43,438 bases of DNA from an uncultured Myxococcales bacterium (GCA_937915965.1 CALGHC010000432.1:1-43438), one strand, 5' to 3'. Shown: positions 4,166-36,232, numbered from the stretch's first letter. Program-made: numbers and translations. Notes: a model not told the origin generated them from the letters alone.

Positions 4166-5728
<1,563 letters not shown>

Positions 5729-22071: not shown

Positions 22072-23184
22072 ATGACGGTTCGTGTCTCGCCTTTCCTCGC
22101 GACCCTCGACGCCGTGCCGATATACCGATCGACCTGGTTGGATCCGGTCGGCCGGCAGGTCAAACTCAACCACAACGAGAGTGCGCAGGACGCACCCGCG
22201 CGGTTGAAGTCCATCGCCCTTGAGCGCCTCGCTGCTGCGCCATGGCACCGCTACCCAGATCCGCACGCCAGCGCGCTGCGGAGCGCCCTCGCCCGGGCCC
22301 TCGGTGTGACCATCGAGTCCATCGTCCTGGGCAACGGCGGCAACGAGCTGATCGGTCGGCTATTCCAATCGCTACGCCGCGACGCCACCATTTTGATTTG
22401 CACGCCCGGCTACTACATCTACGGACGGGCGGCCGCGACACAGGGACTCGCGACCATCGAGATCCCGCTGCAACCGTCGAGCGATGGCGCGACTCCCTTC
22501 GACATCGACGCGGACGCGGTTCTCGAACGAGCGCGGACCTGCGCGTGTCCGGTGCTCTGCCTTGCGCAGCCCAACAACCCGACCGCCGCCCTGTTGTCTG
22601 AGGAGTCAATCTCTCGCATTCTGAAAGGATTCATAGGCTTGTCCGGACTGGTCGTCATCGATGAGGCCTACGTCGACTACAGCGGCGTCAGCCACCTTGA
22701 GACCATCGCCGAGCGACGCGACGTCGTGATCATGCGCACCTTGTCGAAAGCGTTTGGACTCGCAGGTGTTCGACTCGGTGCGTTGCTGGCCCATCCCGAG
22801 ACGGCCGCGACGATCGAGAAGCTCGCCCTGCCCTACGCGCTGGGACTGCCCGCGCAGATCATCGGCGAGGCGGCCCTCGCGTGCGCCGAAGAGGTCCGCA
22901 CACTGGCCCAGGACACCGTCCGGGAGCGAGATCGTCTTGCCGCGGCACTTGGGGCCGTTCTGGGGGCCATTCCGGAGGCCAAAGTGCATCCCTCGGCGAC
23001 CAACTTCCTACTCGTCGACTTCGGGCCCGCGGCGGCACAGGTGCGCACGTCCCTACAGGCCGACGCGATCACCGTGCGTGATCTGGCGACGGTGCCGCGC
23101 CTCGAATCCTGCCTACGCATTTCGGTGGGCCGCCGCGACGAGAACGACCGCCTGGTCGCCGCCGTGCGGGCGGCATTGCGATGA
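22072..23184 (+). CDS. Class I/II PLP aminotransferase, HisC (histidinol-phosphate aminotransferase)-like
   Basis: ORF trimmed to the ATG at 22072, preceded by GGAGG. It has KLNHNES..., YPDP...LR, LGNGGNELI, VIDEAYVDY and RTLSKAFGLAG(V)RLG (PLP-Lys motif). Confidence 0.8.
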   Translation: MTVRVSPFLATLDAVPIYRSTWLDPVGRQVKLNHNESAQDAPARLKSIALERLAAAPWHRYPDPHASALRSALARALGVTIESIVLGNGGNELIGRLFQSLRRDATILICTPGYYIYGRAAATQGLATIEIPLQPSSDGATPFDIDADAVLERARTCACPVLCLAQPNNPTAALLSEESISRILKGFIGLSGLVVIDEAYVDYSGVSHLETIAERRDVVIMRTLSKAFGLAGVRLGALLAHPETAATIEKLALPYALGLPAQIIGEAALACAEEVRTLAQDTVRERDRLAAALGAVLGAIPEAKVHPSATNFLLVDFGPAAAQVRTSLQADAITVRDLATVPRLESCLRISVGRRDENDRLVAAVRAALR

Positions 23185-24098
23185 CGCACAGGAACCGGCC
23201 CGGTGCCGTCGAAGCGGCCCGCGGCTTGCCATTGATCTTCGATCTCGACGGTGTCGTCGTCGACGTCCGCCAAAGCTATCGCCAGGCCTATATCCTTGGA
23301 ATCACCTGGTTTCTCAACGAGATCCTGGGGCGGCCGGGCGACGCTGCCGGATTCACGGTGGCGGACGTCGCCCTGCTCAAGCGCCATCGGGGCTTCAACG
23401 CGCCGCGCGATGTCGTCGCGTTCTTTCTGCGCGCGGCGCTCGTCTCGGACAGCGCTGACCAGCGCGGCGGCGGATTCTCGCGGGTTTCGACCTGGATCAA
23501 GGCGGGGCTCGCGGACGGCCGCCTCGATCGGGGTGCAGAAGCGCTCTTCGACGGATTGTCGGCGCAGACACGGGCCGCCGTTCGTTCCGTCGAGGATGTC
23601 GACGCGGCCCTCAGCAGCTGCCATGAGGTATACATCGGCTCGCGCAACTTCATGACCGTCTACGGCGCGGCGCCCCGCGGCGACTGGCCGGGTCTCTGGC
23701 CGGCGGACCGGCTTCTGCTTCCGCGCGACCGACCGCCGTGCCGGCTGCCGCTCGGAGTCTACAGCGGTCGCACCCGTGGCGAGATCGACCACCTCTTTGA
23801 GCGGCTGCCCTTCTTCGCGCCGATCGCGCCGGCGCACGTTCACAGCGCCGATGACCCGGGCGCCAAGCCCGACGCCGAACCCTTGATCCGCCTCATTGAC
23901 AGCCTCGGCGCGGGCGGAGCGGTCTATCTGGGCGACACCGAGGCGGACAGACAGACCGTCATCGCCCTGCGCCGCCAGCGCCCCGATCTCGTCTGTCTGC
24001 TCGCCCAGATCGATGAGGACAAAGAGGCGCAGTGGTGGCCCGAGGCCGAATTTGCGGCGACCGGACCCGCGGAGATCGTCGATCTGCTAGGCGGCTGA
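23181..24098 (+). CDS. HAD-superfamily hydrolase
   Basis: 305 aa. The ATGA overlaps the aminotransferase stop codon. HAD motif I is LIFDLDGVVVD, motif II is VYSGRT, and the motif III/IV region is AKPDAEPL...YLGDTEADRQT. Confidence 0.7.
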   Translation: MTHRNRPGAVEAARGLPLIFDLDGVVVDVRQSYRQAYILGITWFLNEILGRPGDAAGFTVADVALLKRHRGFNAPRDVVAFFLRAALVSDSADQRGGGFSRVSTWIKAGLADGRLDRGAEALFDGLSAQTRAAVRSVEDVDAALSSCHEVYIGSRNFMTVYGAAPRGDWPGLWPADRLLLPRDRPPCRLPLGVYSGRTRGEIDHLFERLPFFAPIAPAHVHSADDPGAKPDAEPLIRLIDSLGAGGAVYLGDTEADRQTVIALRRQRPDLVCLLAQIDEDKEAQWWPEAEFAATGPAEIVDLLGG

Positions 24099-24135
24099 GA
24101 CTGCGAGGCGGCTGAGACTGCGGGGCGGCTGAGCT
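24090..24135. repeat. 17-nt tandem repeat, about 2.7 copies (GGCGGCTGAGACTGCGR), spanning the HAD gene stop codon
   Basis: The sequence reads ggcggctgagactgcga ggcggctgagactgcgg ggcggctgagct. The first copy contains the GGC GGC TGA end of the HAD CDS. Confidence 0.85.
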
Positions 24136-24164
24136 ACAGTGAGAGCGAACCGAGCCGACGCGGC

Positions 24165-26702
24165 TCAGACCCGCACGCGCCGTGGGTCGAGGGCCGCAGC
24201 CAGCTCGCCCGGTGCCTCGCGGCGCACCCAATCCGCAGCCAGGCGAGCGACGATCGGCGCGTGCATGACCCCGTGGCCAGCGAGCGCAGCGACCAGCACC
24301 AGTCCGTCCAGCCCCGGGCACGGTCCGACATAGGGTCGGCCGTCGGCCGCATGGGTCTGGATGCCGCTGAATGCAGGGCGGAAACGCGCGCCCGCGAGGC
24401 CAGGAAGGCGATGAAGGAGGCGCTCGTGGGCGGCCTCCCGGACAGCCGCCTCCTGCTCGACCGGGTCGCTGCCCTGTTCTTCGTCGAACTCCCACGCGGA
24501 CGCGATGACGCCGCTCGCCTCTGCCCGGAAATACAGGGCCGGCGTGTAAGAGAGCACCAGCGGACCGGAGCTCGGCATGGCGGGGGCGCCTGTGGCCAGG
24601 AAGATGCGACGACGACCAGATCGCATCGGCAGGCGCACACCTGCGGCGACGATCAGGTCGGCGACATCGGCGCCCGCTGCCAAGACGACGGTGTCGGCGC
24701 GCAGGTCACCGCCGTCGGTGCGCACGCCAACAACGCGACCGCGGTCGATCAAGAGGGACTGAACACGCACGCCGGTCTCAACCCGGCCGGCGGCTGCTCG
24801 CAGGCGGCGGGCGTAGGCCTGCACCAAGCCGTGTGGGTCGAGGTGTCCTTCGCTTGGACCGAACGTCGCGCTGCGCACATCGTCGACGCGCAACATGGGC
24901 CAACGCTCGGCCACATCGCCGGCTGAGAGCATCTCGACGGGCCAGCCTACCGCGCGGGCGTGCTCTGCTTGCGCCTCCAGGCGGGCGTCGTCGGCGACAC
25001 AAGTCGACAAGAAGAGGTAGCCATCATCACGCAGGTCGATATGGGCCAGACCCTCGGCTGCCAGATCGTCGAGGAGCGGTCGGGCGGCGGCGGTGAGTCG
25101 CGCCAGGAGCGGATCGCTGTGCTGGGCGCGGATTCCGCCGATGCTCGCGGCAGTTGCGCCGACGCCGAGCTGGCTGGCCGCCTCGAGCAGAAGTACGCCT
25201 GCGCCCAGATCGGCGGCCAACTCGGCGGCCACTGAAACGCCAGCGACGCCGCCACCGACGACGATGACGTCGGTTCGCGCCGCGGTCGGCGTGCGCGCCC
25301 GCCGCGGATTGGGAACCACCGCGCCCGTGGCGTCGACCTGCATCCTGGCGAGCATCCGCCGACGCAGCTCGGGCGTGTAGAAGCGCTGGCAGACCTCGTC
25401 CGAAAACAAGGTGCCGATCTCAGTCAGTCTAACGCGCACGCCGTCATCGACGATCACACCCAGCTCGGTCAGCTCGGCGATCGTCGCCCCGAAGACGCTG
25501 TCAACCGACTCACCGAGCTCGGCTTCGAACCGGCCCCGCACGATGCCGCCGTCGTCGTCGAGTACCTTGAGCGAGAACATCGCCCGCTGAGCGAGCTGTT
25601 CGGCGTGGCTGAGCAATCGGCCATTCGCCAGCGCCCAACCGTCGCCCGCCTCAACGGCCTCGCTGAAGACATCCATATGCCCGTGGTTGAAGGCAATCAC
25701 GTCCGGCCGTCGCGAACAGGCTTCGACCCCGCAACCATCGACGGGCTGCATGTCGCGCCACTTGTCGCGCGCCTGCATCTGCGCGGTCTCGCTGTCGGCC
25801 AGGCAGAAATAGTCAGTCAAAGACTGCCGATAGCCGCGCCGCTCGAGGAAGCGTACCGCAGCCAGGTGCATCTGCAGGTTGAGGTCCTCGGCCGGCGAGG
25901 CGCGCCGCGAGATCGACGTGTCGGGGCGCTTGCGCAGGTGGTACGTCGTGATGCTCTGCACACCAAGATCGGAGGCGACATCGAGCCCCTCGAGCCAACC
26001 GTCGAGATCCTGACCCGGGAGGGCGTAGATGAGATCGATGTTGATGTTGTCGAAGCCCGCTGATCGGGCCTGCAAAACAGCTGCCCGCGCTTCAGCCGCA
26101 TCGTGACGCCGTCCTAGCAAGCGCAGTTGCCGATCGTCGAAGCTCTGGATGCCGATATTGAGCCGGTTGACGCCATGCTGTCGCAGCACGTCGAGCTTCT
26201 CTCGGGTCAGAGTCTCCGGGGCCGACTCCACGGTCCACTCGGTGCCAGCGGGAATCGTTACGTTGCTGCGAATGCCGCCGAGCAGGCGATCGAGCTGGTC
26301 GGCCTCGAGATAGGTCGGTGTGCCGCCGCCTACGAGAACGGACGCGACGCGCTCAAAGCGGTCGTCGCTCCAGCGCAGGCCCATCTCGCGTTCGAGCGCG
26401 GCGAGATAGCGGTCGATTCGCTCGGGACCTGGGTTCACCTCGATCGCGTAATGGCAAAACGTGCAACGGCCAGTGCAAGGCGGGACGTGGACGTAGAGAC
26501 CGATAGGCCCGGTTGGCTGGCTGAGACGGACACGCAGAGCGTCGTCTGCTGCGTGGTCGCGGGCGACCTCGGGGGGTAGAAAGTGGACGACCAGATTGTA
26601 GCCACCCGGGTCACGGCGAATGCCGGCGGCGGCGAGCTTGGCCACATCGAGCGTCGCCAGCGCCTCGCGCACTTCGTCTCTGATGGGATCGAATCGGCTC
26701 AC
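24165..26702 (-). CDS. Fusion protein: HemN/HemW-like radical SAM domain plus DAO-type FAD-dependent oxidoreductase domain
   Basis: 845 aa with a GTG start. The N-terminal half has LYVHVPPCTGRCTFCHY (CxxxCxxC), VLVGGGTPTYL and LNIGIQSFDD, which are HemN-family signatures. The C-terminal half has VIVVGGGVAGVSVAAELA (Rossmann GxGxxG), ASIGGIR and a GHGVMHAP tail typical of DAO, glycine or sarcosine oxidase-like enzymes. Confidence 0.8.
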   Translation of the reverse strand: MSRFDPIRDEVREALATLDVAKLAAAGIRRDPGGYNLVVHFLPPEVARDHAADDALRVRLSQPTGPIGLYVHVPPCTGRCTFCHYAIEVNPGPERIDRYLAALEREMGLRWSDDRFERVASVLVGGGTPTYLEADQLDRLLGGIRSNVTIPAGTEWTVESAPETLTREKLDVLRQHGVNRLNIGIQSFDDRQLRLLGRRHDAAEARAAVLQARSAGFDNINIDLIYALPGQDLDGWLEGLDVASDLGVQSITTYHLRKRPDTSISRRASPAEDLNLQMHLAAVRFLERRGYRQSLTDYFCLADSETAQMQARDKWRDMQPVDGCGVEACSRRPDVIAFNHGHMDVFSEAVEAGDGWALANGRLLSHAEQLAQRAMFSLKVLDDDGGIVRGRFEAELGESVDSVFGATIAELTELGVIVDDGVRVRLTEIGTLFSDEVCQRFYTPELRRRMLARMQVDATGAVVPNPRRARTPTAARTDVIVVGGGVAGVSVAAELAADLGAGVLLLEAASQLGVGATAASIGGIRAQHSDPLLARLTAAARPLLDDLAAEGLAHIDLRDDGYLFLSTCVADDARLEAQAEHARAVGWPVEMLSAGDVAERWPMLRVDDVRSATFGPSEGHLDPHGLVQAYARRLRAAAGRVETGVRVQSLLIDRGRVVGVRTDGGDLRADTVVLAAGADVADLIVAAGVRLPMRSGRRRIFLATGAPAMPSSGPLVLSYTPALYFRAEASGVIASAWEFDEEQGSDPVEQEAAVREAAHERLLHRLPGLAGARFRPAFSGIQTHAADGRPYVGPCPGLDGLVLVAALAGHGVMHAPIVARLAADWVRREAPGELAAALDPRRVRV

Positions 26703-26777
26703 GTTCGCTCGCGTGGTCGGTTGGAGGCAGGGTTGAGTGCGGTCGCTGCGGTGGGGTCGGCGATCGGGCCGAGTGGC

Positions 26778-26847
26778 GGGTCACAACAGGCGGGTCACAA
26801 CAGGCAGGTCACAACAGGCGGGTCACAACAGGCGGGTCAGAACGGGC
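26778..26847. repeat. 14-nt tandem repeat x5 (GGGTCACAACAGGC; GCCTGTTGTGACCC on the transcribed strand)
   Basis: Units lie at 26778, 26792, 26806, 26820 and 26834. Units 1, 2 and 4 are identical, unit 3 differs at 1 nt, and unit 5 is degenerate (gggtcagaacgggc) and overlaps the TGA of the B12-rSAM gene. The array sits in the 134-nt gap between two radical SAM genes. Confidence 0.9.
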
Positions 26848-28213
26848 AGTCGGCGTGGTCGGCCGCGCCGGCTGCAGCTTCGTCGGCGTCGACGCCGCGA
26901 CGGCCAACCTCGGCGATCCGCGTCGCCCAGCCGACCAGGACATCGTCGGGCAGTCCGCAGTAGTCCACCGGAGGAGGCTGCAGGACGGCACCCGGCAGCT
27001 GCGGCTCGGAGAAACGGCGCAGCAGCGCCGCTTGGTCTGGGATGAGCCCGTCGCGCAAACCTTGCCGGAACAGCTCGGTTCCGGGCAGCGGCAGGGGGAA
27101 ATGCACAGAGACGCGCGCGCCGGTCTCCTCAACAAAACGCAGGGTAGCGGCCAGAGAAGCTTCTGTCTCGCCGGGCAGGCCGACGATCAGGAAGCCAGAG
27201 ACGGCGACGTTCTCTGCGTGACAGACCTCGATGCAGCGGACGTTGTCGGCGACGGCGGTCTTCTTGTTCGCGCGGTCGAGAACCAGGTCGTCGCCGCTCT
27301 CGAACCCCACGCGGATCTCGCGGCAGCCGCCGGCGCGCATCCGCCGCACCCGCGATGGGGTGATCATGTCCGCGCGCAGGAGCGCAGACCACTGCAAGTC
27401 CGGTACCGCCTCGGCCAAGGCGTCGGCGATGCGGCCGGGCCGAAACAAGATGTCATCGCGGAAGTACATGCTCTCGATTCCGTAGCGATCGACGTAGCCT
27501 TTCACCTCCGCGGCGACCGAGGCGGGCGAGCGCCGGCGCACCCCCTCGAAGAGCGACGGCACCTGACAGAACGAGCAGCTCCAGGGACAACCAAGCGTCG
27601 TGATGATGCTGAGGTAGTGCTGCAAACGTCGCTTGCTGAAGTATGGAGACGGCCCCCCTGCGATGTATTTGCGGACCGGCAACAGCTCCCAATCGGGTAT
27701 CGGCAGGTCGTCGAGCTTATCCCAAACGGGCGTCGGGCCAGTGCGGTGCAACTCATCGTTCTCGGCTCGGACGATCAGCCCCGGCACGGTCGACAGCGAC
27801 TCGCCCTGCTCGAGCGCGCGAAACAGATTCGTCGCCGAGATGAACCCCTCGCCGATCACCCCTACGTCGGCGCCACAGGAGCGCATGACGACCTCGGGCG
27901 CTCCAGACATCAGGGCGCCGCCCAGGATCAGCGGTCGACCGGGCAGCTCCTTGCGCATCCATGGACCGAAGCGTTCGAGGAACGCGAAGGTGTCGGTGAA
28001 GACGGTGACGCCGACGGCTTCAGGCCGCCAGGAGGCGACCGCCTCGAAGAGTGCCGGCTCGTCGAGCTCGTCGGCGTTGCAGTCAAAGATGCGCACATCG
28101 TGGCCGTCCTCCGCCAGCATCGTGCCGATCATCAGCAAGCCATAGGGCGGATAGAGGCTGTGGGTGTACAGGCGCTTGTACATCCACGGCGGATTGACCA
28201 GAGCGATGCGCAT
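26837..28213 (-). CDS. B12-binding-domain radical SAM protein (class B)
   Basis: ORF trimmed to the ATG at 28213 (MRIALVNPPW...YPPYGLLMIGTMLAEDGHDVRIFD is a typical B12-binding N-terminus). The radical SAM motif is TLGCPWSCSFC. An alternative start exists at 28276. Confidence 0.85.
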   Translation of the reverse strand: MRIALVNPPWMYKRLYTHSLYPPYGLLMIGTMLAEDGHDVRIFDCNADELDEPALFEAVASWRPEAVGVTVFTDTFAFLERFGPWMRKELPGRPLILGGALMSGAPEVVMRSCGADVGVIGEGFISATNLFRALEQGESLSTVPGLIVRAENDELHRTGPTPVWDKLDDLPIPDWELLPVRKYIAGGPSPYFSKRRLQHYLSIITTLGCPWSCSFCQVPSLFEGVRRRSPASVAAEVKGYVDRYGIESMYFRDDILFRPGRIADALAEAVPDLQWSALLRADMITPSRVRRMRAGGCREIRVGFESGDDLVLDRANKKTAVADNVRCIEVCHAENVAVSGFLIVGLPGETEASLAATLRFVEETGARVSVHFPLPLPGTELFRQGLRDGLIPDQAALLRRFSEPQLPGAVLQPPPVDYCGLPDDVLVGWATRIAEVGRRGVDADEAAAGAADHADCPF

Positions 28214-28353
28214 GCGATGTGGGTCCCGTGCGCGCGCTTCATCAATGGCAGATGGCCGGGAGCGCGCGATCGCCATGCTAGAGCAGGGCCGGGGCAAACT
28301 CCAGCCGAGCGTCCGCTTCGCGCTTCGCGACGGCGCGTTGGCTGGCGCGAGTC

Positions 28354-28371
28354 GACGACGACGACGACGAC
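28354..28371. repeat. (GAC)6 trinucleotide repeat in an intercistronic gap
   Basis: gtc gacgacgacgacgacgac gg lies within the 192-nt gap between the coxL-like stop and the rSAM start. Confidence 0.85.
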
Positions 28372-28405
28372 GGCCGGACGCACGGGGTCGAGCGGACCGC
28401 GGGCT

Positions 28406-30559
28406 TTACCGCGGCGGCAATGAGCGGCAAGCACGCCAGACCGCTTCGGGCGAAAGCGGCAACCGCGACAGCTCCGCGCCGGTGGCGTCACGAACGGCGT
28501 TGCAGATCGCCGGGGCGACGGCCATCAAGCCAATCTCGCCCACTCCTTTGACCCCAAGCGGGTGACTTGGCTCGTTTCCCGGGACGAAGTGGACCTCGAC
28601 CTCGGGCACGTCGCTGGCTCGCGTCAGGCCATAGTCCGTGCCCCCCCGCGTCAGCAGATGACCGCCAGCGTCGAAGTCGAGTCGCTCAAAGAGCGCGAAA
28701 CCCAAACCCTGAATGGCCGCGCCCTCGACCTGGCCGTGGGCGTGTAGCGGGTTGAGCACCCGGCCGATATCGACGGCGACAATCAAGCGCACCACCCGGG
28801 TCGCGCCCGTCGCGGCCGATACGTCGACAACTGCGCCGCACGCGGCGAACGGCGGAGCGTTTCCGACCGGCTTGTGACGCACCGTCGCTTCCAGCGGAAG
28901 GGGCTCGCCGGCGGCGCGGCGATCACGGACCGCGCAGGCAGCGCGATGGACCGCCTCGCCCGCGACAAATGTACGACCCGAGGCGTGCGCCCCGCTGTCC
29001 TCGAGCTCATCCGCGGTGTCGCCGAGACCGACGGTGACGCGCGTCGGGTCGTGTTCGAGGACATCGGCAGCGATGCGGGCAAGCGTGGTCGCGACGCCAG
29101 TGCCTCCCTGATCGGGGGCACCAGACAACACCGTGAGCATCCCGTCGGACTCCAGCCGGACCAGGGCGGTCGACACCTCCTTGCGTCCCTTGCCGGAGGT
29201 GTGCATGGCCATGGCGACGCCGGTCCCACGTAGCATGCCGGCGTCGGCGGCTGGGGTTGTGCCGTCGCCCAGGGACCGTTCGATCTGATCGAGACACGCG
29301 CCGAGCTCGCACGACGAGATCCGCGCGCCAACCGTCTCGAAGCGCCCGGTCGTGGTGTCGACCCTGCCGACCGACGCGTTGGCGCTGCCGGCCGCCAGCC
29401 CGTGGCCGCGTCGGAAGGCGAACGGGTCGATTCCCAGCTCGCGGCAGATGCGATCGGTGTGGACCTCAACCGCGAACGTCGCTTGCGGATTACCAAAGCC
29501 GCGTGTCGCTCCGGCGACCGGCTTGTTCGTATAGACGAGGTGACCACGGAAGCGCAGCGCTGGCGCCTGGTAGAGGACCAGCGATCGAAGCGCACGCAAG
29601 ATGACGTAGGGACCCAGATCGAGGTGACCGCCAACATCGTACCAGGCGTCCATGGTGCGGGCGATCAGACGTCCGTCGCGATCAAGCGCGCTGCGCACCC
29701 GAATCCGAGCGCCGTGGCGCACGCGCCCGGCAAGGAAACCCTCGCTGCGGCGCAGCACACAACGCACCGGCCGGCCGGCTCGCAAAGCAAGCACCGCGGC
29801 GATGAACTCAAGGTCATCCATGCGGCTGCCGAAGCCGCCGCCGACCGGCGGGCAGATGACCCGCACAGCGCTGTGGTCGAGACCGAGCCAGTCGGCGAGC
29901 TGGGCGCGCAACTCGAAGGGGTCGGGCACACCTTTGTAGACAGTCAGACCACCGCCCGGCTGCGGCTCGACAAGGACGGCATAGCGTTCCCAAGCAGCTG
30001 CTTGCACGGTCGGCGTTCCGAATGTGTCGTCAAAGACGCGTGCGGCGCCGGCAAATCCGGCGTCCACGTCGCCTTGATCAAACGCGACCGGCCCGAACGG
30101 CAGCGCGAGGTTCGAGGCGCCGAGGTGGGCGGGAACCGCGTCCTCGCCCAGGGCGGCGTCAAGCGCTACGACGACCGGCAACTCGGTGTAGGTGACACGC
30201 ACCGCCGCGGCGGCAGCGCGAGCGAGCTCCTCGGTCTCGGCGAGGACGGCGGCGACAGGCGCGCCGCAGAAGGGCGGCTCGCTGAAGAAGACCGGACGCT
30301 GGCTGAGACGGCGGTCGTAGAAATTTTCGCCCGGGATCGCGCGCACATCGGTGTCAAAACAGGTGGCCACGGCGAGGACGCCCTCGAGCGAGAGAGCGCC
30401 GTCGATGTCGATCGCGTCGACCCGGGCGTGACCGTGTGGGCTGCGCACGACGGCGGCGTGCGCGAGGCCGGGAAGATCGAGGTCGGTGAGAAAACGGGTT
30501 CGCCCGGACGCCTTGTCGAGGGCATCGATCTGCGGCGCCCGCTGGCCCAATAGGCTCAT
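28406..30559 (-). CDS. Molybdopterin-binding large subunit of a xanthine dehydrogenase / aldehyde oxidase / CoxL-family hydroxylase
   Basis: The long ORF 28406..30973 is trimmed to the ATG at 30559, which forms an ATGA overlap with the upstream gene. Motifs are QIDALDKASGRTRFLTD, AVVRSPHGHARV, GGGFGSR and TRGFGNPQATFAVE, with a C-terminal GVKGVGEIG. Confidence 0.88.
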   Translation of the reverse strand: MSLLGQRAPQIDALDKASGRTRFLTDLDLPGLAHAAVVRSPHGHARVDAIDIDGALSLEGVLAVATCFDTDVRAIPGENFYDRRLSQRPVFFSEPPFCGAPVAAVLAETEELARAAAAAVRVTYTELPVVVALDAALGEDAVPAHLGASNLALPFGPVAFDQGDVDAGFAGAARVFDDTFGTPTVQAAAWERYAVLVEPQPGGGLTVYKGVPDPFELRAQLADWLGLDHSAVRVICPPVGGGFGSRMDDLEFIAAVLALRAGRPVRCVLRRSEGFLAGRVRHGARIRVRSALDRDGRLIARTMDAWYDVGGHLDLGPYVILRALRSLVLYQAPALRFRGHLVYTNKPVAGATRGFGNPQATFAVEVHTDRICRELGIDPFAFRRGHGLAAGSANASVGRVDTTTGRFETVGARISSCELGACLDQIERSLGDGTTPAADAGMLRGTGVAMAMHTSGKGRKEVSTALVRLESDGMLTVLSGAPDQGGTGVATTLARIAADVLEHDPTRVTVGLGDTADELEDSGAHASGRTFVAGEAVHRAACAVRDRRAAGEPLPLEATVRHKPVGNAPPFAACGAVVDVSAATGATRVVRLIVAVDIGRVLNPLHAHGQVEGAAIQGLGFALFERLDFDAGGHLLTRGGTDYGLTRASDVPEVEVHFVPGNEPSHPLGVKGVGEIGLMAVAPAICNAVRDATGAELSRLPLSPEAVWRACRSLPPR

Positions 30560-32088
30560 GAGCGATCCTTCGCTGAACCATCGGCCGAGCCGGCGGCCGT
30601 GGCGGTGAGTGCCGCGCTGACCGCAGCAGACCGCGCCAGCAGGGCCCTTTCTCGCAGTGCCTGGAGCCCGTTCGCGGCCCCCTCGACGAGGAGACCGTAG
30701 CCGGTGCATCGACACAGGTTGCCATCGAGTCCGCGCCGCAGCCCCGCTGGTGTCGCCTGCACATCGTCGCGATCGACCAACGCGTGCACGGCGACCACCA
30801 TGCCCGGCGTGCAAAATCCGCACTGAAGACCACCGCTTGTGACGAGCGCAGTCACGACGGGTCCGTCGGCATGTCGAGCCGCCGTTGTCACGGAGGCGCC
30901 GACGTAGCGCATGGCGGGAACAACGCATGAGTGAATGTGGTCGCCGTCGACGACCGCGCTGCATGCCCCGCATGTGCCCTCGCCGCAGGCGATCTTCAAG
31001 GCCAGGGAGCCCGCTGCCCGCAGGGCCTCGGCGAGGGATGCGTTCGCTGGGATGGCGGCCTCGCGCTCGACGCCGTCGACAATCGCCGTCCAGACGACTC
31101 GTTGCAGTGAGCCACCCGACGGAGAAGCCCCCGACGGAGAAGCCCCCGGCGGAGAAGCCCCCGGCGGAGAAGCCCCCGACGGAGAAGCCCCCGGCGGAGA
31201 AACCCCCGGCGAAGAAACGCCCGACGGAGAAGCCCCCGCAGGCCCAGCGAACCGATCAGGCGGCAGAACCGGCCGGTGGCTGGCGATAGTCGGGGCCAAT
31301 GGCGGCCTCGACAGGCGGAGAAGCAGGCGGCGGACCAACTCCCCTGCCATGGCGCGGCGGTACAAGGCCGACGCGCGCGGGTCATCGAAGACAGCCTGGA
31401 GGCCAGCGTCGACAGTGGCGGCCACCTCGTCGACGTCGTCGACGCCGGCGCCCGGAAAGTCGAAACCTTGGACGCGCATCGAGAGAGCACCGACAAAGAG
31501 GCGAACTCCCGCCGGACCGAGCGCCGCCGCGACCGTGACCAGGCCAGGACCGAGGGGAGTGCGACGGATCTTGTCGAAACCGGTCACCTCGCCCGGACGA
31601 CCTCGCAGCCCAAAACCGACGATCAGCTCGTCGGCACCGCGCTGCAGGGTAGCGACCGTTGCCGTGCGCGCTCCCGCAGGGCCGACCAACTCGACCTCGC
31701 CGTCGAGCAAGGCGACTGGCGCGATCAACGAGCCGAACCCCTGGCCGACATTGCCACCAAGGGTCGCAATGCGGCGGACCGCGCGCGGCACGAAGCCGCA
31801 AACTGCGTCGTGAAGCGCGGCGAGCTCCGGCGAGGCGAGCGCCTCGCAGCGAGCGAGGCGATCGACCGTGACGGTCGCGCCGATGTGCACGCGGTCGGTA
31901 CCGACGTCCAAGCGCCCCAGGCCAGCGTCGCAAAGATCGATGATCACATCCGGCCGGGGACCGGCCAGCCCGCCGAGCATCAGCGTCGCTCCGCCCAGCC
32001 AGACCGAGCCGGGGTGGGCCGCTCGCTGCGCCAGCGCCTCGGCCACCGAGGCCGGCCTGAGGTAGTGCGGTGCGGGGGCGCGGCCCAT
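30556..32088 (-). CDS. Fusion of a FAD-binding (CoxM-like) subunit and a 2Fe-2S (CoxS-like) subunit joined by a pentapeptide-repeat linker
   Basis: The N-terminus has the YLRPASVAEAL...GGATLMLGG...IIDL FAD_binding_5 pattern. The linker is GASPSGVSSPGVSPPGASPSGASPPGASPPGASPSGASPSGGS. The C-terminus has CGEGTCGACSAVVDG...SC, GLQCGFCTPGM and NLCRCTGY, the two 2Fe-2S motifs. GGAGA precedes the ATG at 32088. Confidence 0.85.
   Translation of the reverse strand: MGRAPAPHYLRPASVAEALAQRAAHPGSVWLGGATLMLGGLAGPRPDVIIDLCDAGLGRLDVGTDRVHIGATVTVDRLARCEALASPELAALHDAVCGFVPRAVRRIATLGGNVGQGFGSLIAPVALLDGEVELVGPAGARTATVATLQRGADELIVGFGLRGRPGEVTGFDKIRRTPLGPGLVTVAAALGPAGVRLFVGALSMRVQGFDFPGAGVDDVDEVAATVDAGLQAVFDDPRASALYRRAMAGELVRRLLLRLSRPPLAPTIASHRPVLPPDRFAGPAGASPSGVSSPGVSPPGASPSGASPPGASPPGASPSGASPSGGSLQRVVWTAIVDGVEREAAIPANASLAEALRAAGSLALKIACGEGTCGACSAVVDGDHIHSCVVPAMRYVGASVTTAARHADGPVVTALVTSGGLQCGFCTPGMVVAVHALVDRDDVQATPAGLRRGLDGNLCRCTGYGLLVEGAANGLQALRERALLARSAAVSAALTATAAGSADGSAKDRS
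31121..31240. repeat. 15-nt tandem repeat x8 (GGAGAAGCCCCCGRC) encoding the GASPx linker
   Basis: Eight consecutive 15-nt units were read directly, and the last three carry 1-4 substitutions each. They are in frame (5 codons per unit) within the CoxM-CoxS fusion gene. Confidence 0.9.
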
Positions 32089-32112
32089 GGAGGTCTCCGA
32101 CGGTGAGTGACG

Positions 32113-33015
32113 CTAGGGCAGCAGGTCGTGCAGATCGAGGTCGTAGTCGTCGGGGTTGCACGGGACCCGAACGAACTGCTCAAGCCAGTCGACGTAGTCC
32201 TTGTCCAGACCGATCTTGCGCGCGCCGGTGATGATCTTGTCGGTATTCGCTGGGTGCGAGGTGTTGCCCCAGATCCACCAGCGCGGCAGCGTGCGGTAGA
32301 TCTCGGCCCAGACCGACCGGCCAGATCCATCGTCAAGCGCGACCTGGTAGGTCTTGCGCACGAGGTGACGGCCTTCCTTCTCCTGTGGATCGAGGGACGC
32401 TTCCATCTCAAGGTTGCTCATGCGGTAGAGCGCACCGCGGACGATGCCGTCACGGCGCGGCAGGATCGTGACGTAGGTGAAGCGCTCGACCTGGCTGTCC
32501 TTGGCGAAAGCGACCTGCCACCCGTCGACGTGGCCGAGCTTGCAATCGTACGTCACGAGTTCTCGGCGCTCGCTGAAGTCGAACATGTTGGATGCATAGC
32601 CGAAATACCAGCATGTCGGGCTGAGCTGGCCAGCCTCTCGCGGCAGCGCACCACCAGACAGCAGCGTCTCGCCCTTCCAAGCGCCGGTCCAGTCTCCCGA
32701 CCACGTCCACAGCCACGCGTCAACGGGCTGCCCCTCCGAACCGGGTCGAACCCGCCAGCGGCGGCGCTCGAAATCTGGTCCGTAGTGGTTGTCGAGCGAG
32801 GCGAGCAGCGTGTCGTCGCCGTAGTACAGCTCGCCGGCGACCCAAGCGTCGCCGCCGCCACGTACCGCCAGCGCGGCGTCGGGCTCACCCTTGTGATCCA
32901 ACGAGAAGGCGACGCCTTTGACGCTGGCGCGTCCGGCAAAGAGATTCTCGCCGAGCAGCGCGTGGTGGCGACCGCCGTGGGCAAGGGTGTTGTGTACAAA
33001 GACGAGCTGATCCAT
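32113..33015 (-). CDS. Tandem gamma-glutamylcyclotransferase-like (GGCT/AIG2/GGACT) domain protein
   Basis: 300 aa. Domain 1 starts LVFVHNTLAHGG (compare the VFVYGTLxxG motif) and runs to GELYYG...LD..YG. Domain 2 starts WYFGYASNM (compare YFAYGSNL) and runs to GALYRMS...LDPQEKEG. GGAGA precedes the ATG. Confidence 0.6.
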   Translation of the reverse strand: MDQLVFVHNTLAHGGRHHALLGENLFAGRASVKGVAFSLDHKGEPDAALAVRGGGDAWVAGELYYGDDTLLASLDNHYGPDFERRRWRVRPGSEGQPVDAWLWTWSGDWTGAWKGETLLSGGALPREAGQLSPTCWYFGYASNMFDFSERRELVTYDCKLGHVDGWQVAFAKDSQVERFTYVTILPRRDGIVRGALYRMSNLEMEASLDPQEKEGRHLVRKTYQVALDDGSGRSVWAEIYRTLPRWWIWGNTSHPANTDKIITGARKIGLDKDYVDWLEQFVRVPCNPDDYDLDLHDLLP

Positions 33016-33104
33016 GCGTGCTCTCCAGGTCTGGGCTCAGGCGCGGCGGGGGGCGCTGCGACGGCGCGGGTTTTGCCTTCCGGGGGGAGCGAGGGCCGCG
33101 CAGT

Positions 33105-34427
33105 CTAGACGCGGGCTCCCTGGCCGCGCAACCGATTGCGCAACGCGGCGACGTCGAGGTCGCGCGGGGCGACGTCCTGATCGGCACACAGGACCGCGGC
33201 GAGACCGGCAGCCTCGCCCAGCGCCATGGACGTCGCCTGCATGCGCGCGGACGACTGCGCGATGTGGGTGGCCGAGATGCATCGGCCCGCGACGAGGATC
33301 CCGTCCGCATCCACCGGTACCAGCGCACCATAGGGGATGTCGTAGTCGACGTCCTTCCAGATCAACGACTCGCGGCTCTTCCAATCGAGCCCCTTCTCCT
33401 GGCGCGGATCGCCCGGTGTCGCCGAATGAGCCTCGAGAAAGCACGTGCCCTTCGCGATCCCAAGATCGCTCTTGCGATCAGCGCGCACATCGTCTTCGGT
33501 CAGGGTGTAGACGCCGCGCAGACGCCGGGCCTCGCGAGGCCAGGTCTGCGCTGACGTCTGCAACAACGCCGAGTTCTCGAAGCCCGGCACGTTCGCCCGC
33601 ATCCAATCGTGGACCTTGCGCAGACCGTCGCGCGTCTCGATCTCCGCCCAGCTGATCGCCCGAGGATCGGTCGGATCGCACCAGTGTTGCACCAGCCTGC
33701 ACCACACCTGATCGCGCAAGATGCCCCCCCGCACGACGCGTGGGAACATGATGCCGAGCATCACGGGGGGAATGTCGCCGCGCTGCCACGCCGCGTCGAG
33801 CAGGGGCGAGACGTTCTGCTGGCTCCAGCCCATCATCTCGGGGTAGGTCATCTCGGGGGTGTAGGGCAGATGGACGTTGCCGAAGATGCTCGCGAGCAGC
33901 ATGGGCTGCGGCTTGCCGTCCTCTTCGCGGCCCACGTCAAAGGCGCATCCGGCGGCATCGAAGACGTCGCCATCGCCCGAGCAGTCGATGGTCACCTTGG
34001 CGGCGACCTCAAGACGACCGCGCTTGGTCGCCAGCGCCGCGCCGGTGACCCGAGCGCCGCTGCGCACTACGTCGATGAAGCGGCAGTGGAAGAGGATGTC
34101 GACGCCAGCATCGACGAGCAGCCGGTCCATCACCCATTTGCAGGTCTCGACGTCCCAGACCGGTTTGCAGACCGCGTCCTCGGCGACCATGCGATCGAAT
34201 AGTTCGCGAGCGATACCCTGCACGGCCCAGCCGTCTGGATCGGTCGACGTCGCCCAATACTTGAAGGGCTCGTAGCCGACTGGAGTCAGCGCCAGCCCCA
34301 TCGAAAACGCGCCACCGGCAGCACCGTAGCGTTCAACCAGAAGCGTCCGTGCGCCCGCCCGCGACGCGGAGATGGCGGCGGCAACCCCCGCCGGACCAGC
34401 TCCGATCACCAAAACGTCGTACTGCAT
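33105..34427 (-). CDS. FAD-dependent oxidoreductase (FAD_oxidored / GidA-like fold)
   Basis: 440 aa. The N-terminus is MQYDVLVIGAGPAGVAAAISASRAGARTLLVERYGAAGG (dinucleotide-binding motif). The C-terminus has ILVAGRCIS...ARMQATSMALGEAAG, typical of this family. Confidence 0.75.
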   Translation of the reverse strand: MQYDVLVIGAGPAGVAAAISASRAGARTLLVERYGAAGGAFSMGLALTPVGYEPFKYWATSTDPDGWAVQGIARELFDRMVAEDAVCKPVWDVETCKWVMDRLLVDAGVDILFHCRFIDVVRSGARVTGAALATKRGRLEVAAKVTIDCSGDGDVFDAAGCAFDVGREEDGKPQPMLLASIFGNVHLPYTPEMTYPEMMGWSQQNVSPLLDAAWQRGDIPPVMLGIMFPRVVRGGILRDQVWCRLVQHWCDPTDPRAISWAEIETRDGLRKVHDWMRANVPGFENSALLQTSAQTWPREARRLRGVYTLTEDDVRADRKSDLGIAKGTCFLEAHSATPGDPRQEKGLDWKSRESLIWKDVDYDIPYGALVPVDADGILVAGRCISATHIAQSSARMQATSMALGEAAGLAAVLCADQDVAPRDLDVAALRNRLRGQGARV

Positions 34428-34653
34428 GCTTGCTCCTTCTGTCGTCCGTTCAAGATAGTCGTTCGTACCGGCAATGGACAGGGTGTGGCCAGGCGGCCGC
34501 GGCGACTGACGAGCCCGCGGGCCGCCACGTCTTGCGGTGCTTCAGAGATTGTGCAGCATCTGCGGGGAGATGGGCGCGGGGCGAGCGCGGCAGAAGGCGG
34601 GCAGAGCGACCGGGCAAGTTGACCCCGATCAAGCCCGCCTGCACACTGAACGC

Positions 34654-36192
34654 ATGAAGCGTGGCCTGCCCCAACAGCCCCGGATCGCGTTCCTGCAGCC
34701 AGGACAGTTGATGCCGCGCGACGCCCTCGACGCGGCGCACTCGTTCAACGTCTCGACCACCGCACTCGCGATCCTTGGTGCGCTGCGCGACGGCGGCTAC
34801 GACGACCTGCACTTCTTCGACATCGCCTGTGAACACGGTGACGCGGTCAGCAAGTTCAACGAACACCTGTTCTACAAGGGTGCGGCCGATGCGGACGTCG
34901 CGACATGGCTGGGCGCGACCGCGCCCGACGCTGTCCTGCTGACGTCGATGTTCACCTGCGATTTCCCGGCGACGGAGCACGCCCTGCGGCTGGTTCGGCG
35001 GACCTTGCCAAACGCAGTCATCGTAGTGGGCGGTCGGCATGCTTCGCTGATGCCGCACTGGCACCTCGACAACGAGGCCGTCGACTACCTCGTGCAGGGC
35101 GAAGGTGAGCAAGCGATCATCCGGCTGATCGATGCTTTGACCAGGCGCGTCGACAGCGTTGACCCCGAGCAGCTCCCTGGCATCTTCACCCGCGGCACGC
35201 TCAACCCGTCGCAGCCCAAGGCCTGGCCCGAAGCGAAGCTGGGCGGTTCGTTCGCCAAGGACCTCGTGCTCTTCAAGCCCGATGGCTCGTTCCGCTACCG
35301 CGAGATCATCCTGACCGAGTCCCCCAAGGACCACCTCTACAAGGGCAACGCGCCTGCCCTGCACTCTGCCCCTTTGATGGCCACCCGCGGCTGCCCGCTC
35401 GCGTGCCGCTTCTGCGGCAGCCACTTCACGCCGGACATGCGCCCCGTCGGGCTTGAGCGCCTGATGGGCGACATCCGCTGGGAATACGAACGCGGAATCC
35501 GAATCTTCTACAATATTTCAGAAAATTTCTGCCTGCACGCGCAGGATCGGGAGCTGGTCTCGCTGCTCGCCGACTACCGCACGGAAGTCGGCGGCGACAT
35601 CTTGCTGACACACCCGAACTCGACCTACCTGCCGGTCTACATGAAGGGCAAAGCCCCTGACGCCGCCTTCATCGAGAAGCTCATGGCTGCGGGCACAGAG
35701 CTCGTGACGATCTCTCTTGAGACGTTCTCGCCGCGCTTCGACGACAAGAAGCTCTTCCGCAAGTTCACGATCGGGCAGGTCGAGGCGCTGTGGGCGCACT
35801 TCCAGTCGGTCGGCTTGAAAGTGCACCTCTACATGATGACGGGCTTCCCAGGTCAGACCGTGACTGAGTTGATGCACGACGTCGCCCAGGTCCACGACTG
35901 GATCGAACGTGGCCTGGTCGACGCCGCCTCCTGGTCCAACCTGCTCTACCTTCCGGGCACGGCCTACTACCGCTTCGCCGTGGAACAGGGCTTCTTTGAC
36001 GAGGCGTGGTTTCGCCGTTCGATCGACAAGGGATTCAACTTCTTCGCGGTGCCTGAGCGGTTGAACTTTTCGGCGGTCCCCACGCCGATGCTGCGCGACG
36101 TACTCGCCAACCTGCGCGTCGCCGACTATGCCGGTGCGCTGCGCGCTGGTGACGGCGCCGCGGCAGGTGTGCAACCCATCGTGGGTGGCTAG
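34654..36192 (+). CDS. B12-binding-domain radical SAM protein (second, divergent copy)
   Basis: ORF 34537..36192 trimmed to the ATG at 34654. It has a B12-binding-like N-terminal domain (VLLTSMFTCDF...VIVVGGRHASL...VQGEGEQAI) and the radical SAM motif ATRGCPLACRFC. Confidence 0.8.
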   Translation: MKRGLPQQPRIAFLQPGQLMPRDALDAAHSFNVSTTALAILGALRDGGYDDLHFFDIACEHGDAVSKFNEHLFYKGAADADVATWLGATAPDAVLLTSMFTCDFPATEHALRLVRRTLPNAVIVVGGRHASLMPHWHLDNEAVDYLVQGEGEQAIIRLIDALTRRVDSVDPEQLPGIFTRGTLNPSQPKAWPEAKLGGSFAKDLVLFKPDGSFRYREIILTESPKDHLYKGNAPALHSAPLMATRGCPLACRFCGSHFTPDMRPVGLERLMGDIRWEYERGIRIFYNISENFCLHAQDRELVSLLADYRTEVGGDILLTHPNSTYLPVYMKGKAPDAAFIEKLMAAGTELVTISLETFSPRFDDKKLFRKFTIGQVEALWAHFQSVGLKVHLYMMTGFPGQTVTELMHDVAQVHDWIERGLVDAASWSNLLYLPGTAYYRFAVEQGFFDEAWFRRSIDKGFNFFAVPERLNFSAVPTPMLRDVLANLRVADYAGALRAGDGAAAGVQPIVGG

Positions 36193-36232
36193 ACGCCGTT
36201 GTCGGCAGGTGGTGGTGACGCGACGGCGGCGT
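36193..36232 (+). terminator. Stem-loop immediately after the rSAM stop codon (possible terminator or processing site)
   Basis: ACGCCGTTGTCG (36193-36204) pairs with CGACGGCGGCGT (36221-36232), giving 12 bp including 2 G-U pairs and a 16-nt loop. There is no U-tract, so a terminator function is uncertain. Confidence 0.25.

Follow-up and report, generated by a model that had tools for sequence, protein, structure and literature searches.

A conserved orphan gene cluster combining three radical SAM enzymes, a molybdenum hydroxylase and a tandem GGCT-fold protein in an uncultured myxobacterium

What pathway would bring together three radical S-adenosylmethionine (SAM) enzymes, a molybdenum hydroxylase, flavoproteins and a tandem gamma-glutamylcyclotransferase-fold (GGCT) protein? 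This question is raised by a 43,438-nucleotide (nt) stretch of DNA from an uncultured Myxococcales bacterium (GCA_937915965.1, CALGHC010000432.1:1-43438), which we analyzed at its full length and refer to as the window. The initial annotation outlined a cluster of such genes at 24165-36192. We find that the cluster is larger than this, and that the 11 genes at 20221-36192 very probably constitute one functional unit (Table 1). The unit comprises four modules. Module A contains an aldolase-like protein, an LdpA-like protein, a HisC-like aminotransferase, a HAD-superfamily protein, and the second of two B12-binding radical SAM (rSAM) enzymes (B12-rSAM 2). Module B pairs B12-rSAM 1 with a fusion of a HemN-like rSAM domain to a DAO-family flavoenzyme (rSAM-DAO); module C pairs a PF12831 flavoprotein (FADox) with the tandem GGCT protein; and module D is a three-cofactor molybdenum (Mo) hydroxylase, encoded by CoxL and CoxM-CoxS genes.

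The comparison with related genomes that the initial annotation had called for shows that the 11 genes are kept together. We gathered the loci around homologues of the GGCT, rSAM-DAO and aldolase-like proteins and mapped the window proteins onto them by tblastn. Loci were surveyed within ±10 kb, so the absence of a module applies to the locus and not to the genome; the lineages compared are few (about seven), and genes in the related loci come partly from open reading frame (ORF) calling and partly from the tblastn mapping. Three lineages, the window, L009 and L012, have the complete set of 11 within ~21 kb, each in an order of its own. In the window, a rightward aldolase, LdpA, aminotransferase and HAD operon converges on a leftward series of rSAM-DAO, B12-rSAM 1, CoxL, CoxM-CoxS, GGCT and FADox, beyond which lies a rightward B12-rSAM 2. 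In L009 (Baikal-deep-G138), a rightward run of FADox, CoxM-CoxS, CoxL, B12-rSAM 1 and rSAM-DAO faces a leftward run of HAD, aminotransferase, LdpA, aldolase and B12-rSAM 2, followed by a rightward GGCT gene. L012 (an Umeå bin) starts with a leftward B12-rSAM 2, a rightward aldolase, LdpA, aminotransferase and HAD run, and a leftward GGCT, FADox and DJ-1 run; it continues with rightward rSAM-DAO, beta-propeller, Cys-rich lipoprotein, CoxS, CoxL and CoxM genes, and ends with a leftward B12-rSAM 1.

Two further loci hold much of the same gene set. L047 has a single operon of CoxM-CoxS, CoxL, aldolase, LdpA, aminotransferase and HAD genes, convergent with an rSAM-DAO gene whose product is the closest relative of the window's fusion (64% identity). 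L028 is an unfused variant with modules A (partial), B and C: it carries LdpA and aldolase genes, a stand-alone HemN-like rSAM (51%), a separate DAO, B12-rSAM 1 (56%), B12-rSAM 2 (50%) and a FADox orthologue (54.5%). In this locus, a 610-amino-acid (aa) protein joins GGACT/AIG2_2 domains to a FAD_oxidored domain paralogous to FADox.

Individual adjacencies recur within these arrangements. The aldolase-like gene is syntenic in L009, L012, L028 and L047, always with the LdpA-like gene next after it, and the aminotransferase and HAD genes are syntenic in L009, L012 and L047. B12-rSAM 1 is directly upstream of rSAM-DAO in the window and in L009, L010, L011, L014, L015, L033 and L043, and at distances of ~4 kb in L013 and ~7 kb in L012 (the B12-rSAM 1 segments compared between L015 and L011 are identical, and L015 may be mis-binned). 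FADox adjoins the GGCT gene in the window, L002, L004, L007 and L012. Subunit order and fusion vary in the Mo-hydroxylase, with an S-L fusion plus M in L004 and separate S, L and M genes in L012. The partial set in L008 consists of GGCT and CoxM only.

The families that travel together in this way are very small. A search set of 5.8 billion protein clusters contains, counted as clusters, 16 relatives of the tandem GGCT protein, about 16 of the full-length rSAM-DAO fusion, and 25 members of the aldolase-like family. An exhaustive search of 1.84 billion representatives with a profile of the GGCT alignment returned 4 matches at E ≤ 1e-30 and 27 at E ≤ 1e-10. Because families this rare share contigs in at least five lineages, with their orders shuffled, the grouping is far beyond chance. 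Furthermore, two Rosetta-stone fusions, rSAM-DAO itself and the 610-aa protein of L028, link the rSAM enzyme to the DAO enzyme and the GGCT protein to the flavoprotein. A chance juxtaposition of unrelated redox genes might be argued from the genomes in which modules stand separate (L002, L007 and L010), but it is refuted by this pattern of co-occurrence and by the two fused pairs, and we give it practically no weight. All named source genomes are metagenome-assembled and labelled Myxococcales or Deltaproteobacteria, from Lake Baikal, Swedish lakes and groundwater.

Synteny also redraws the cluster's limits. The boundaries first proposed were too narrow, since the operon of aldolase-like, LdpA-like, aminotransferase and HAD genes at 20221-24098 also belongs. 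B12-rSAM 2, initially described as divergent from the first gene, is a true member: in L009 it is part of the aldolase operon, in L012 it diverges from the counterpart of this operon, in L007 it diverges from FADox beside the flavoprotein/GGCT pair, and in L028 it is next to B12-rSAM 1. The seven genes originally described were all found, with their domains, in an ORF list and Pfam scan. Their spacing within the minus-strand operon (gaps of 89, 24, -4, 192 and 134 nt) was recovered after two starts had been trimmed. The CoxL start is placed at 30559 because family alignments begin at about residue 140 of the long ORF, and that of B12-rSAM 1 at an ATG at 28213 because its homologues align from residue 29. 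For B12-rSAM 2, an ATG at 34654 may be the true start. Junctions in the plus-strand operon are -4, +28 and -4 nt. Pfam scans bear out the absence of a regulator, transporter or peptide-sized ORF within the cluster.

Table 1. The 11 genes of the unit, with window coordinates.
Product	Position	Strand	Features
HpcH/HpaI-fold aldolase-/lyase-like TIM-barrel protein	20221..21021	+	266 aa; opens the convergent operon; start is the database call P0137
LdpA-like protein with ferredoxin-type Cys-rich insert	21018..22043	+	Pfam LdpA_C + Fer4_7
HisC-like class I/II pyridoxal phosphate (PLP) aminotransferase	22072..23184	+	Pfam Aminotran_1_2; ATG start with GGAGG 5' of it
HAD-superfamily hydrolase, putative phosphatase	23181..24098	+	Weak Pfam Hydrolase/HAD_2; 4-nt overlap with aminotransferase stop
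HemN-like rSAM / DAO-family flavin adenine dinucleotide (FAD) amine dehydrogenase/oxidase fusion (rSAM-DAO)	24165..26702	-	845 aa; Pfam Radical_SAM + HemN_C + DAO
B12-binding rSAM enzyme 1 (B12-rSAM 1)	26837..28213	-	458 aa; Pfam B12-binding + Radical_SAM; ORF reaches 28297
CoxL/XdhA-like molybdopterin subunit	28406..30559	-	717 aa; Ald_Xan_dh_C (PF01315), MoCoBD_1 (PF02738), MoCoBD_2 (PF20256); ORF to 30973
CoxM-CoxS fusion, FAD + double [2Fe-2S] subunit	30556..32088	-	Pfam FAD_binding_5 + Fer2 + Fer2_2
Tandem GGCT protein	32113..33015	-	300 aa; GGACT in two stretches, weak AIG2_2 + ChaC
PF12831 FAD-dependent oxidoreductase (FADox)	33105..34427	-	440 aa; Pfam FAD_oxidored 333 bits
B12-binding rSAM enzyme 2 (B12-rSAM 2)	34537..36192	+	Pfam B12-binding + Radical_SAM; divergent from FADox

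What each module might do can be approached through its closest relatives. In the rSAM-DAO fusion, the CxxxCxxC and GGGTP motifs are invariant across 14 homologues. The best Protein Data Bank (PDB) matches of the N-terminal half are HemN (1olt) and then the class C methylase NocN (9p2u). Class C rSAM methylases use two SAM to transfer one-carbon (C1) units onto sp2 carbons (PMC9692996), and HemN-like proteins include methylases, cyclopropanases, heme chaperones and the heme-degrading ChuW (PMC10114718). The fusion stays under the NCBIfam cut-offs of all such families (score/cut-off: STM4012 213/380, HemW 166/205, HemN 146/325, ChuW 144/400), that of HemZ included. The C-terminal half best matches 1y56_B, DauA, DMGDH and glycine oxidase, with NikD also matched, and its best structural relatives act on secondary or cyclic amines. 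Because Gln occupies the position of the carboxylate-clamp Arg305 of DauA, the DAO half is slightly more likely to act on a secondary or cyclic amine than on a free alpha-amino acid. The nearest relatives with an unfused HemN-like domain (L016-L026 and L037-L041) share 33-35% identity and include a tight ANME-1/Methanophagales group; no other cluster genes were detected near these unfused relatives, including the ANME-1 loci and L029.

Both B12-rSAMs combine PF02310 with PF04055, the architecture of class B enzymes, and their CxxxCxxC cysteine motifs read CPWSCSFC and, in B12-rSAM 2, CPLACRFC. The best NCBIfam matches of B12-rSAM 1 (TIGR04072, Sden_1168, HpnJ and BchE) are all far under cut-off, and its PDB matches are AprD4 (the best), TsrM and TokK; orthologues of B12-rSAM 2 share 50-68% identity. 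The initial annotation took class B enzymes as typically methylating. Methylation is indeed one chemistry of the class and is plausible here, but it is not assured because other members of the class close rings or introduce double bonds. The two proteins match methylases, BchE, HpnJ and AprD4 weakly and about equally, and ring formation, desaturation and dehydration are all among the reactions described for the class (bioRxiv 10.1101/2025.10.20.683597).

A 14-nt tandem repeat (GGCGGGTCACAACA; 5.2 copies, 93% matches) at 26775-26847 begins at the TGA stop of B12-rSAM 1 and occupies the gap before the rSAM-DAO gene, each unit having a TGA on the coding strand. The corresponding gap in L009 is only ~37 nt, too short for the GGCGGGTCACAACA array. 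Elsewhere in the window, a tRNA-Sec gene lies at 9140-9236 (-) (Rfam, 77 bits; ARAGORN anticodon TCA), and selenoprotein synthesis by the organism is therefore probable. In view of this tRNA, the TGA stop and a weak match to a CUAEP-tail family, we considered read-through of B12-rSAM 1 as a selenoprotein and rejected it: read-through enters the 14-nt repeat only.

CoxL is a molybdenum cofactor (Moco)-binding large subunit, as judged from its three Pfam domains and the glutamate in its GVGEIG motif. This glutamate, which we take to be the catalytic glutamate of Mo-hydroxylases, aligns with GLGEIG of 7dqx. The protein does not reach the equivalog cut-offs of XdhA (378/780), 4-hydroxybenzoyl-CoA reductase alpha (378/995) or carbon monoxide dehydrogenase group 5 (268/950), nor those of PucD, PaoC and Se-dependent xanthine dehydrogenase. 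Its closest PDB entries, 1rm6, 7dqx and 1t3q, are 4-hydroxybenzoyl-CoA reductase alpha, 6-hydroxypseudooxynicotine dehydrogenase and quinoline 2-oxidoreductase, which have aromatic or N-heterocyclic substrates. The CoxM-CoxS protein has both sets of 2Fe-2S motifs (CGEGTCGAC, CGFCTPG and CRCTGY). Its halves are joined by a repetitive Pro/Ser/Gly/Ala pentapeptide linker, encoded by a 15-nt tandem repeat of 8.5 copies at 31110-31238.

In module A, the aldolase-like protein scores 22.9 for Pfam HpcH_HpaI, under the cut-off of 25, and its provisional assignment comes from structure. An AlphaFold2 (AF2) model built from 25 sequences has a predicted local distance difference test score (pLDDT) of 93.6 and a TIM-barrel fold. 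Its best Foldseek neighbors in the PDB are the class II pyruvate aldolases SwHKA, HpaI and HpcH, malyl-CoA lyase/CLYBL, and SbnG (E ~3e-8, TM 0.45-0.58). E125 (NxET) and D154 (GRSDL) are invariant in the family and are predicted to be divalent-metal ligands, as in HpaI. Distant homologues in L030 and L031 share no gene context with the cluster, and PDB sequence searches with FADox and with the aldolase-like and GGCT proteins yielded no useful match. The weak P-methyltransferase matches of the B12-rSAMs, together with a barrel of the phosphoenolpyruvate (PEP)/pyruvate type, made a PEP mutase and a phosphonate pathway candidates. These were rejected, given that neither PEP mutase nor isocitrate lyase appears in the Foldseek top 50, which consists of HpaI, CitE and SbnG folds, and that Ppd or PhnW-type genes are absent.

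The LdpA-like protein, which is possibly an electron carrier, scores 62 bits for LdpA_C and 127 bits for NCBIfam CircClkLdpA (cut-off 450). Its Cys-rich insert of ~50 residues is present in the window, L012 and L028 and missing from the L009 copy (L009:14392-15273 (-)); this may mean that the Fe-S part is dispensable or that the assembly is imperfect. The aminotransferase (Aminotran_1_2, E = 1e-44) falls just short of NCBIfam hisC (TIGR01141; 258 bits, cut-off 276.55), scores 197 bits for CobD, and has this cluster, with no his operon, as its genomic context. HisC works on a phosphorylated ketone substrate. The HAD protein scores 50 bits for TIGR01548 and 28 bits for HAD-IA, above the HAD-IA cut-off of 23.3. 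Since the near-HisC aminotransferase is translationally coupled to the HAD gene, the pair suggests, by analogy, a sequence from keto-phosphate to amino-phosphate to amino-alcohol or amino acid.

The tandem GGCT assignment is borne out by an AF2 model (pLDDT 75) whose best Foldseek match is the two-domain protein YkqA (2qik; E = 3e-13), followed by ChaC2, GGCT and GGACT; the structures matched are 2qik, 3cry, 6ky1, 1vkb and 3jub. Glu62 (GELY) is invariant in domain 1, and the YGxL loop there is degenerate (HNTL) in the window's clade. Domain 2 is almost unvarying, with invariant YASNM and LDPQEKEG motifs. For FADox, a PDB search found no solved homologue beyond the FAD-binding N-terminus. The initial annotation likened the GGCT protein to the enzyme that removes a gamma-glutamyl protecting group in butirosin biosynthesis, a parallel that the gene content does not support: no BtrI-type carrier, and no BtrJ/ATP-grasp or GS-type ligase, was found in the window or the related loci. 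A gliotoxin-like glutathione route is conceivable instead, because a DJ-1/PfpI gene adjoins the FADox-GGCT pair; it lies directly upstream of FADox in L004 and L012 only.

Does the unit correspond to a pathway already described? None of the seven proteins from the minus-strand operon and B12-rSAM 2 reaches an NCBIfam equivalog cut-off. Scans of 16225-43438 and the related loci found none of the partner enzymes of purine, nicotinate or nicotine degradation (uricase/allantoinase, enamidase, 2-methyleneglutarate mutase and 6-hydroxynicotine oxidase), and literature searches aimed at this gene combination found no paper describing the cluster. The view that no characterized pathway has this combination thus stands, and the genes are neither scattered in related genomes nor equal to a known route.

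From the observed domains, motifs, rarity, co-inheritance and fusions, we infer a substrate, an order of steps, a direction and a product for the unit. The reading that we tentatively favor, at a little under an even chance, is a modular, cytoplasmic, cofactor-heavy and O2-independent pathway acting on a small nitrogen-containing metabolite, most likely biosynthetic. A small-molecule pathway on an amine or N-heterocycle, as first suggested, is still the most coherent reading of a cluster that is conserved and unmatched. By analogy with the enzyme families present, its chemistry would avoid O2 by means of rSAM radicals, water-derived hydroxylation and flavin dehydrogenation. The aldolase-like enzyme would couple a pyruvate-type enolate with a phosphorylated aldehyde; the HisC-like enzyme would aminate the keto-phosphate, from which the HAD enzyme would take off the phosphate. 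The DAO domain could then turn the resulting secondary or cyclic amine into an imine or a heteroaromatic ring, and the fused class-C-type rSAM domain and the two B12-rSAMs might add C1 units or rearrange unactivated carbons. The Mo-hydroxylase would put a water-derived oxygen beside the ring nitrogen, giving a lactam or pyridone, and the GGCT/flavoprotein pair would release or cyclize an amide-linked glutamyl-type group. The product that we favor would be a C-alkylated, hydroxylated N-heterocycle or lactam made from an aldol-derived amino building block.

We favor biosynthesis because rSAM methylases, which spend two SAM per turnover, are costly and a poor fit for catabolism; because (hetero)aromatic sp2 centers are preferred by class C enzymes and by Mo-hydroxylases alike; and because the trio of aldolase, aminotransferase and phosphatase resembles building-block routes. 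A more far-reaching version is a new O2-independent biosynthesis in which the rSAM-amine dehydrogenase fusion, the two B12-rSAMs and the Mo-hydroxylase build a multiply C-alkylated, hydroxylated N-heterocycle; this we consider improbable.

Several genes and repeats surrounding the unit bear on other explanations or are recorded in their own right. Upstream lie ThiG and a ThiE-like gene (18437-19942). A thiamin link, considered also for the resemblance of the DAO domain to ThiO, was rejected, with ThiO scoring 94 against a cut-off of 251 and ThiG being non-syntenic in every related locus. Downstream, 117 nt past B12-rSAM 2 and on the same strand, a polysaccharide assembly operon (36310-42760 (+)) encodes a glycosyltransferase family 4 protein (GT4), a Wzx-like flippase, Wzy_C, and a 751-aa protein with a weak match to an LA_3751-family glycosyltransferase. 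GT4, Wzx, Wzy and ThiG were never found with the cluster in related loci (tblastn and gene tables). Rfam gave no riboswitch across 19900-36400, and promoter and terminator scans of the region returned only background, the sole sigma-70-like site being 36246-36274. GC content is uniform at 65-70% across the composition profile, and nothing in it therefore points to a recent island. Where the HAD and rSAM-DAO genes converge, 66 nt apart, a tandem repeat of 17 nt (2.9 copies, 24084-24133) covers the 3' end of HAD and this gap; it may serve as a bidirectional terminator region or have arisen by slippage during replication.

In the related loci, the most frequent companion is fam1, a family of secreted, Cys-rich repeat lipoproteins that Pfam does not match, which occurs in or beside the cluster in L004, L006, L007, L010, L011, L012, L014 and L028 (examples at L028:18220-19200 and L007:1287-2336). 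Its recurrence could be incidental, or fam1 could be a partner, target or binder of the product. The window has Cys-rich ORFs of its own (9-14% Cys) at 9568-9924 (+), 9986-10999 (+) and 14283-14804 (-), one with OmpA and DUF7107 domains; a hidden Markov model (HMM) search showed no relation of these ORFs to fam1. In L010, an HMPTM/Tes-type zinc-ribbon rSAM protein and an NnrS protein are encoded upstream of module B (L010:6254-7717 and 5003-6199), with a fam1 gene between them and the B12-rSAM 1/rSAM-DAO pair. At L006:12210-16967, a defence-island-like stretch of NERD-helicase, ARPP-1 and DEAD-helicase genes separates CoxM from the GGCT/fam1 genes. L006 overlaps at its end with the beginning of L013, and L013 goes on with CoxM, CoxS, CoxL, B12-rSAM 1 and rSAM-DAO.

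How well does a single biosynthetic route withstand these and other observations? A number of them weigh against it. No cluster gene reaches an equivalog cut-off, so each step is a family analogy, and every source is a metagenome assembly. In the aldolase-like protein, the canonical His and Arg of HpaI appear to be replaced (TEEE; K68 in VKIGG). Neither Pfam and NCBIfam scans of the window nor the gene tables of the related loci contain a ligase making gamma-glutamyl amides or a carrier protein. Module B occurs by itself in L010, L011, L014 and L033, with housekeeping genes as neighbors in L010 and L011; module C occurs by itself in L002 and L007; and L004 has modules C and D without any rSAM enzyme. 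Because modules B, C and C plus D also occur alone, the modules may serve related but separable functions. Finally, the pyruvate-aldolase fold, the Mo-hydroxylase and amine dehydrogenases are hallmarks of catabolic routes too. The same 11 genes might thus be run in the opposite direction, as an O2-independent degradation of an imported N-heterocycle or cyclic or gamma-glutamylated amine, by way of water hydroxylation (Mo), C-N oxidation (flavoenzymes), skeleton rearrangement (B12-rSAM), transamination, and HpcH-type aldol cleavage to pyruvate. In its anaerobic fermentation of nicotinate, Eubacterium barkeri likewise uses a Mo-hydroxylase together with a B12 radical enzyme and a lyase that forms pyruvate, and HpaI/HpcH-type folds, which Foldseek assigns to the aldolase-like protein, are typical terminal aldolases of aromatic catabolism. 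The structures nearest to CoxL are likewise catabolic, DauA, DMGDH and proline dehydrogenase, all catabolic, are among the DAO relatives, and genes suiting uptake and degradation adjoin the cluster: a TonB-dependent receptor (L047:10183-12393), an SSF symporter (L012, ~21240-22547) and a TetR regulator (L028:6203-6844). However, these transporters and the regulator each occur in one lineage and are unconserved among the loci, and the named partners of purine, nicotinate and nicotine degradation were not found there or in the window. We know of no characterized catabolic route with three rSAM enzymes, two of them class B, and the characterized HemN-like class C proteins are methylases, cyclopropanases, heme chaperones or ChuW (PMC10114718). 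Catabolism is the main rival to biosynthesis, and on balance an unlikely one.

The remaining explanations place the unit in the service of lipids, proteins or polysaccharides, and all are less likely than biosynthesis or its catabolic reversal. Membrane-lipid modification, by methylation, cyclization or desaturation of alkyl chains or by an unusual head group, would accord with the top NCBIfam match of B12-rSAM 1 (TIGR04072, "lipid biosynthesis B12-binding/radical SAM protein"), its matches to HpnJ and HpnR, the Tes/HMPTM-type rSAM gene ~0.9 kb upstream of module B in L010, and the resemblance of the FADox N-terminus to geranylgeranyl reductase. B12-rSAMs are also known as lipid methylases, ring synthases and desaturases (bioRxiv 10.1101/2025.10.20.683597). 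Nevertheless, the scores are far under cut-off (134 bits versus 360), the reductase likeness is limited to the FAD-binding fold, no locus has acyl, isoprenoid or glycerol-phosphate genes, and lipid tailoring is not known to involve a Mo-hydroxylase, a GGCT protein, a HisC-like aminotransferase or a pyruvate-aldolase fold. We consider this explanation very improbable, and slightly more so the maturation of a protein or peptide such as the fam1 lipoprotein, or of a cofactor for nearby secreted beta-propeller proteins. The recurrence of fam1 suggests such a role, as do beta-propeller lipoproteins with faint Lactonase/Cytochrom_D1 matches, which flank FADox-GGCT in L002 (7107-8537 and 11242-12432) and lie near it in L004 (4717-6228) and L012 (12857-14005), and the presence of B12- and HemN-like rSAMs in pathways for peptides that are synthesized ribosomally and modified post-translationally (PMC9692996). 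Yet the window has the complete enzyme set without a fam1 (HMM search) or beta-propeller homologue and without intergenic room for a precursor peptide, and L009 matched none of the fam1, beta-propeller and DJ-1 queries. The adjacency of fam1, a repeat protein type common in these genomes, may be incidental, and the aldolase, aminotransferase, phosphatase and Mo-hydroxylase indicate small-molecule chemistry. Lower still is the probability that the polysaccharide of the adjacent GT4/Wzx/Wzy genes receives a modified sugar, or a substituent other than a carbohydrate, from the unit. The closeness and shared strand of these genes invite the idea, and aldolases, aminotransferases and phosphatases are common in sugar tailoring; however, synteny largely refutes it, with no related locus having GT4, Wzx or Wzy homologues beside the cluster, and the only promoter-like site is directly upstream of GT4, suggesting a separate transcript.

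If the more far-reaching version of the biosynthetic reading is true, the product would be a new metabolite or a redox- or metal-binding cofactor, possibly used extracellularly by the recurring Cys-rich lipoprotein and beta-propeller proteins or imported via the adjacent TonB-dependent receptor. To our knowledge, no Mo-hydroxylase has previously been found embedded in rSAM-driven biosynthesis; this would be the first, and GGCT-flavoprotein pairs would gain a new role. If the genes form one pathway, it would link class B and class C rSAM enzymes, a xanthine-dehydrogenase-type hydroxylase and GGCT-fold proteins, which have not been seen acting together before. The context is also the only one from which the functions of three very small families (the tandem GGCT protein, the HemN-DAO fusion and the aldolase-like protein) can be learned. 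As a compact unit of ~16 kb from a lineage without cultured members, it is a target for heterologous expression that could reveal new rSAM chemistry, a microbial metabolite or a cofactor. This value is tempered by the many comparable orphan clusters in metagenomes.

Comparison with characterized systems places each part of the unit near known enzymes. The rSAM half of rSAM-DAO shares the core of class C/HemN-like enzymes (NosN, NocN, TbtI, ChuW, Jaw5 and HemN/HemW), namely CxxxCxxC, GGGTP and a HemN_C remnant, and differs from them in being fused to a DAO flavoenzyme; the words "fused", "fusion" and "FAD" find no match in the text of a review of HemN-like proteins (PMC10114718). The B12-rSAMs share the N-terminal B12-binding domain and rSAM core of characterized class B enzymes (TsrM, TokK, Fom3/PhpK, GenK, BchE, HpnJ, AprD4, glycerol dialkyl glycerol tetraether methylases, ring synthases and a desaturase). 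In contrast to these, they have no equivalog match, and their best matches are as diverse as methylases, a cyclase, a ring-contraction enzyme and a dehydratase. With the catabolic loci of Mo-hydroxylases (HcrABC, nicotine Kdh/Ndh, quinoline Qor and nicotinate dehydrogenase), the unit shares the three-cofactor architecture of Moco, two [2Fe-2S] clusters and FAD. Its CoxL, however, does not score above half of any equivalog cut-off, and in place of enamidase, 6-hydroxynicotinate reductase, uricase/allantoinase or benzoyl-CoA genes it has three rSAM enzymes and a GGCT protein.

The GGCT protein shares two GGCT folds and conserved glutamates with BtrG (butirosin), GliK (gliotoxin), GGACT, GGCT, ChaC and YkqA of B. 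subtilis, the last being closest. Whereas the butirosin and gliotoxin systems have a BtrI/BtrJ-type carrier and ligase, or glutathione S-transferase and dipeptidase partners, the partner here is a PF12831 flavoprotein, fused to GGCT domains in L028. At the level of pathway logic, the unit resembles the nikkomycin (NikA/B/T and NikD), 1-deoxynojirimycin (GabT1/Yktc1/GutB1) and hydroxyproline/4-hydroxy-2-oxoglutarate routes, with which it shares a combination of pyruvate-aldolase fold, PLP aminotransferase, HAD hydrolase and DAO flavoenzyme. This likeness does not extend to orthology with the nikkomycin, iminosugar and hydroxyproline enzymes, and the aldolase-like family is separate, tiny and apparently altered at catalytic positions. 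Every protein of the unit thus belongs to a known superfamily, none is an equivalog of a characterized enzyme, and nothing in the sequence demands a new principle. The cluster is an orphan, rSAM-rich metabolic gene cluster that is unusual in its combination of enzymes, its two fusions and its extreme rarity.

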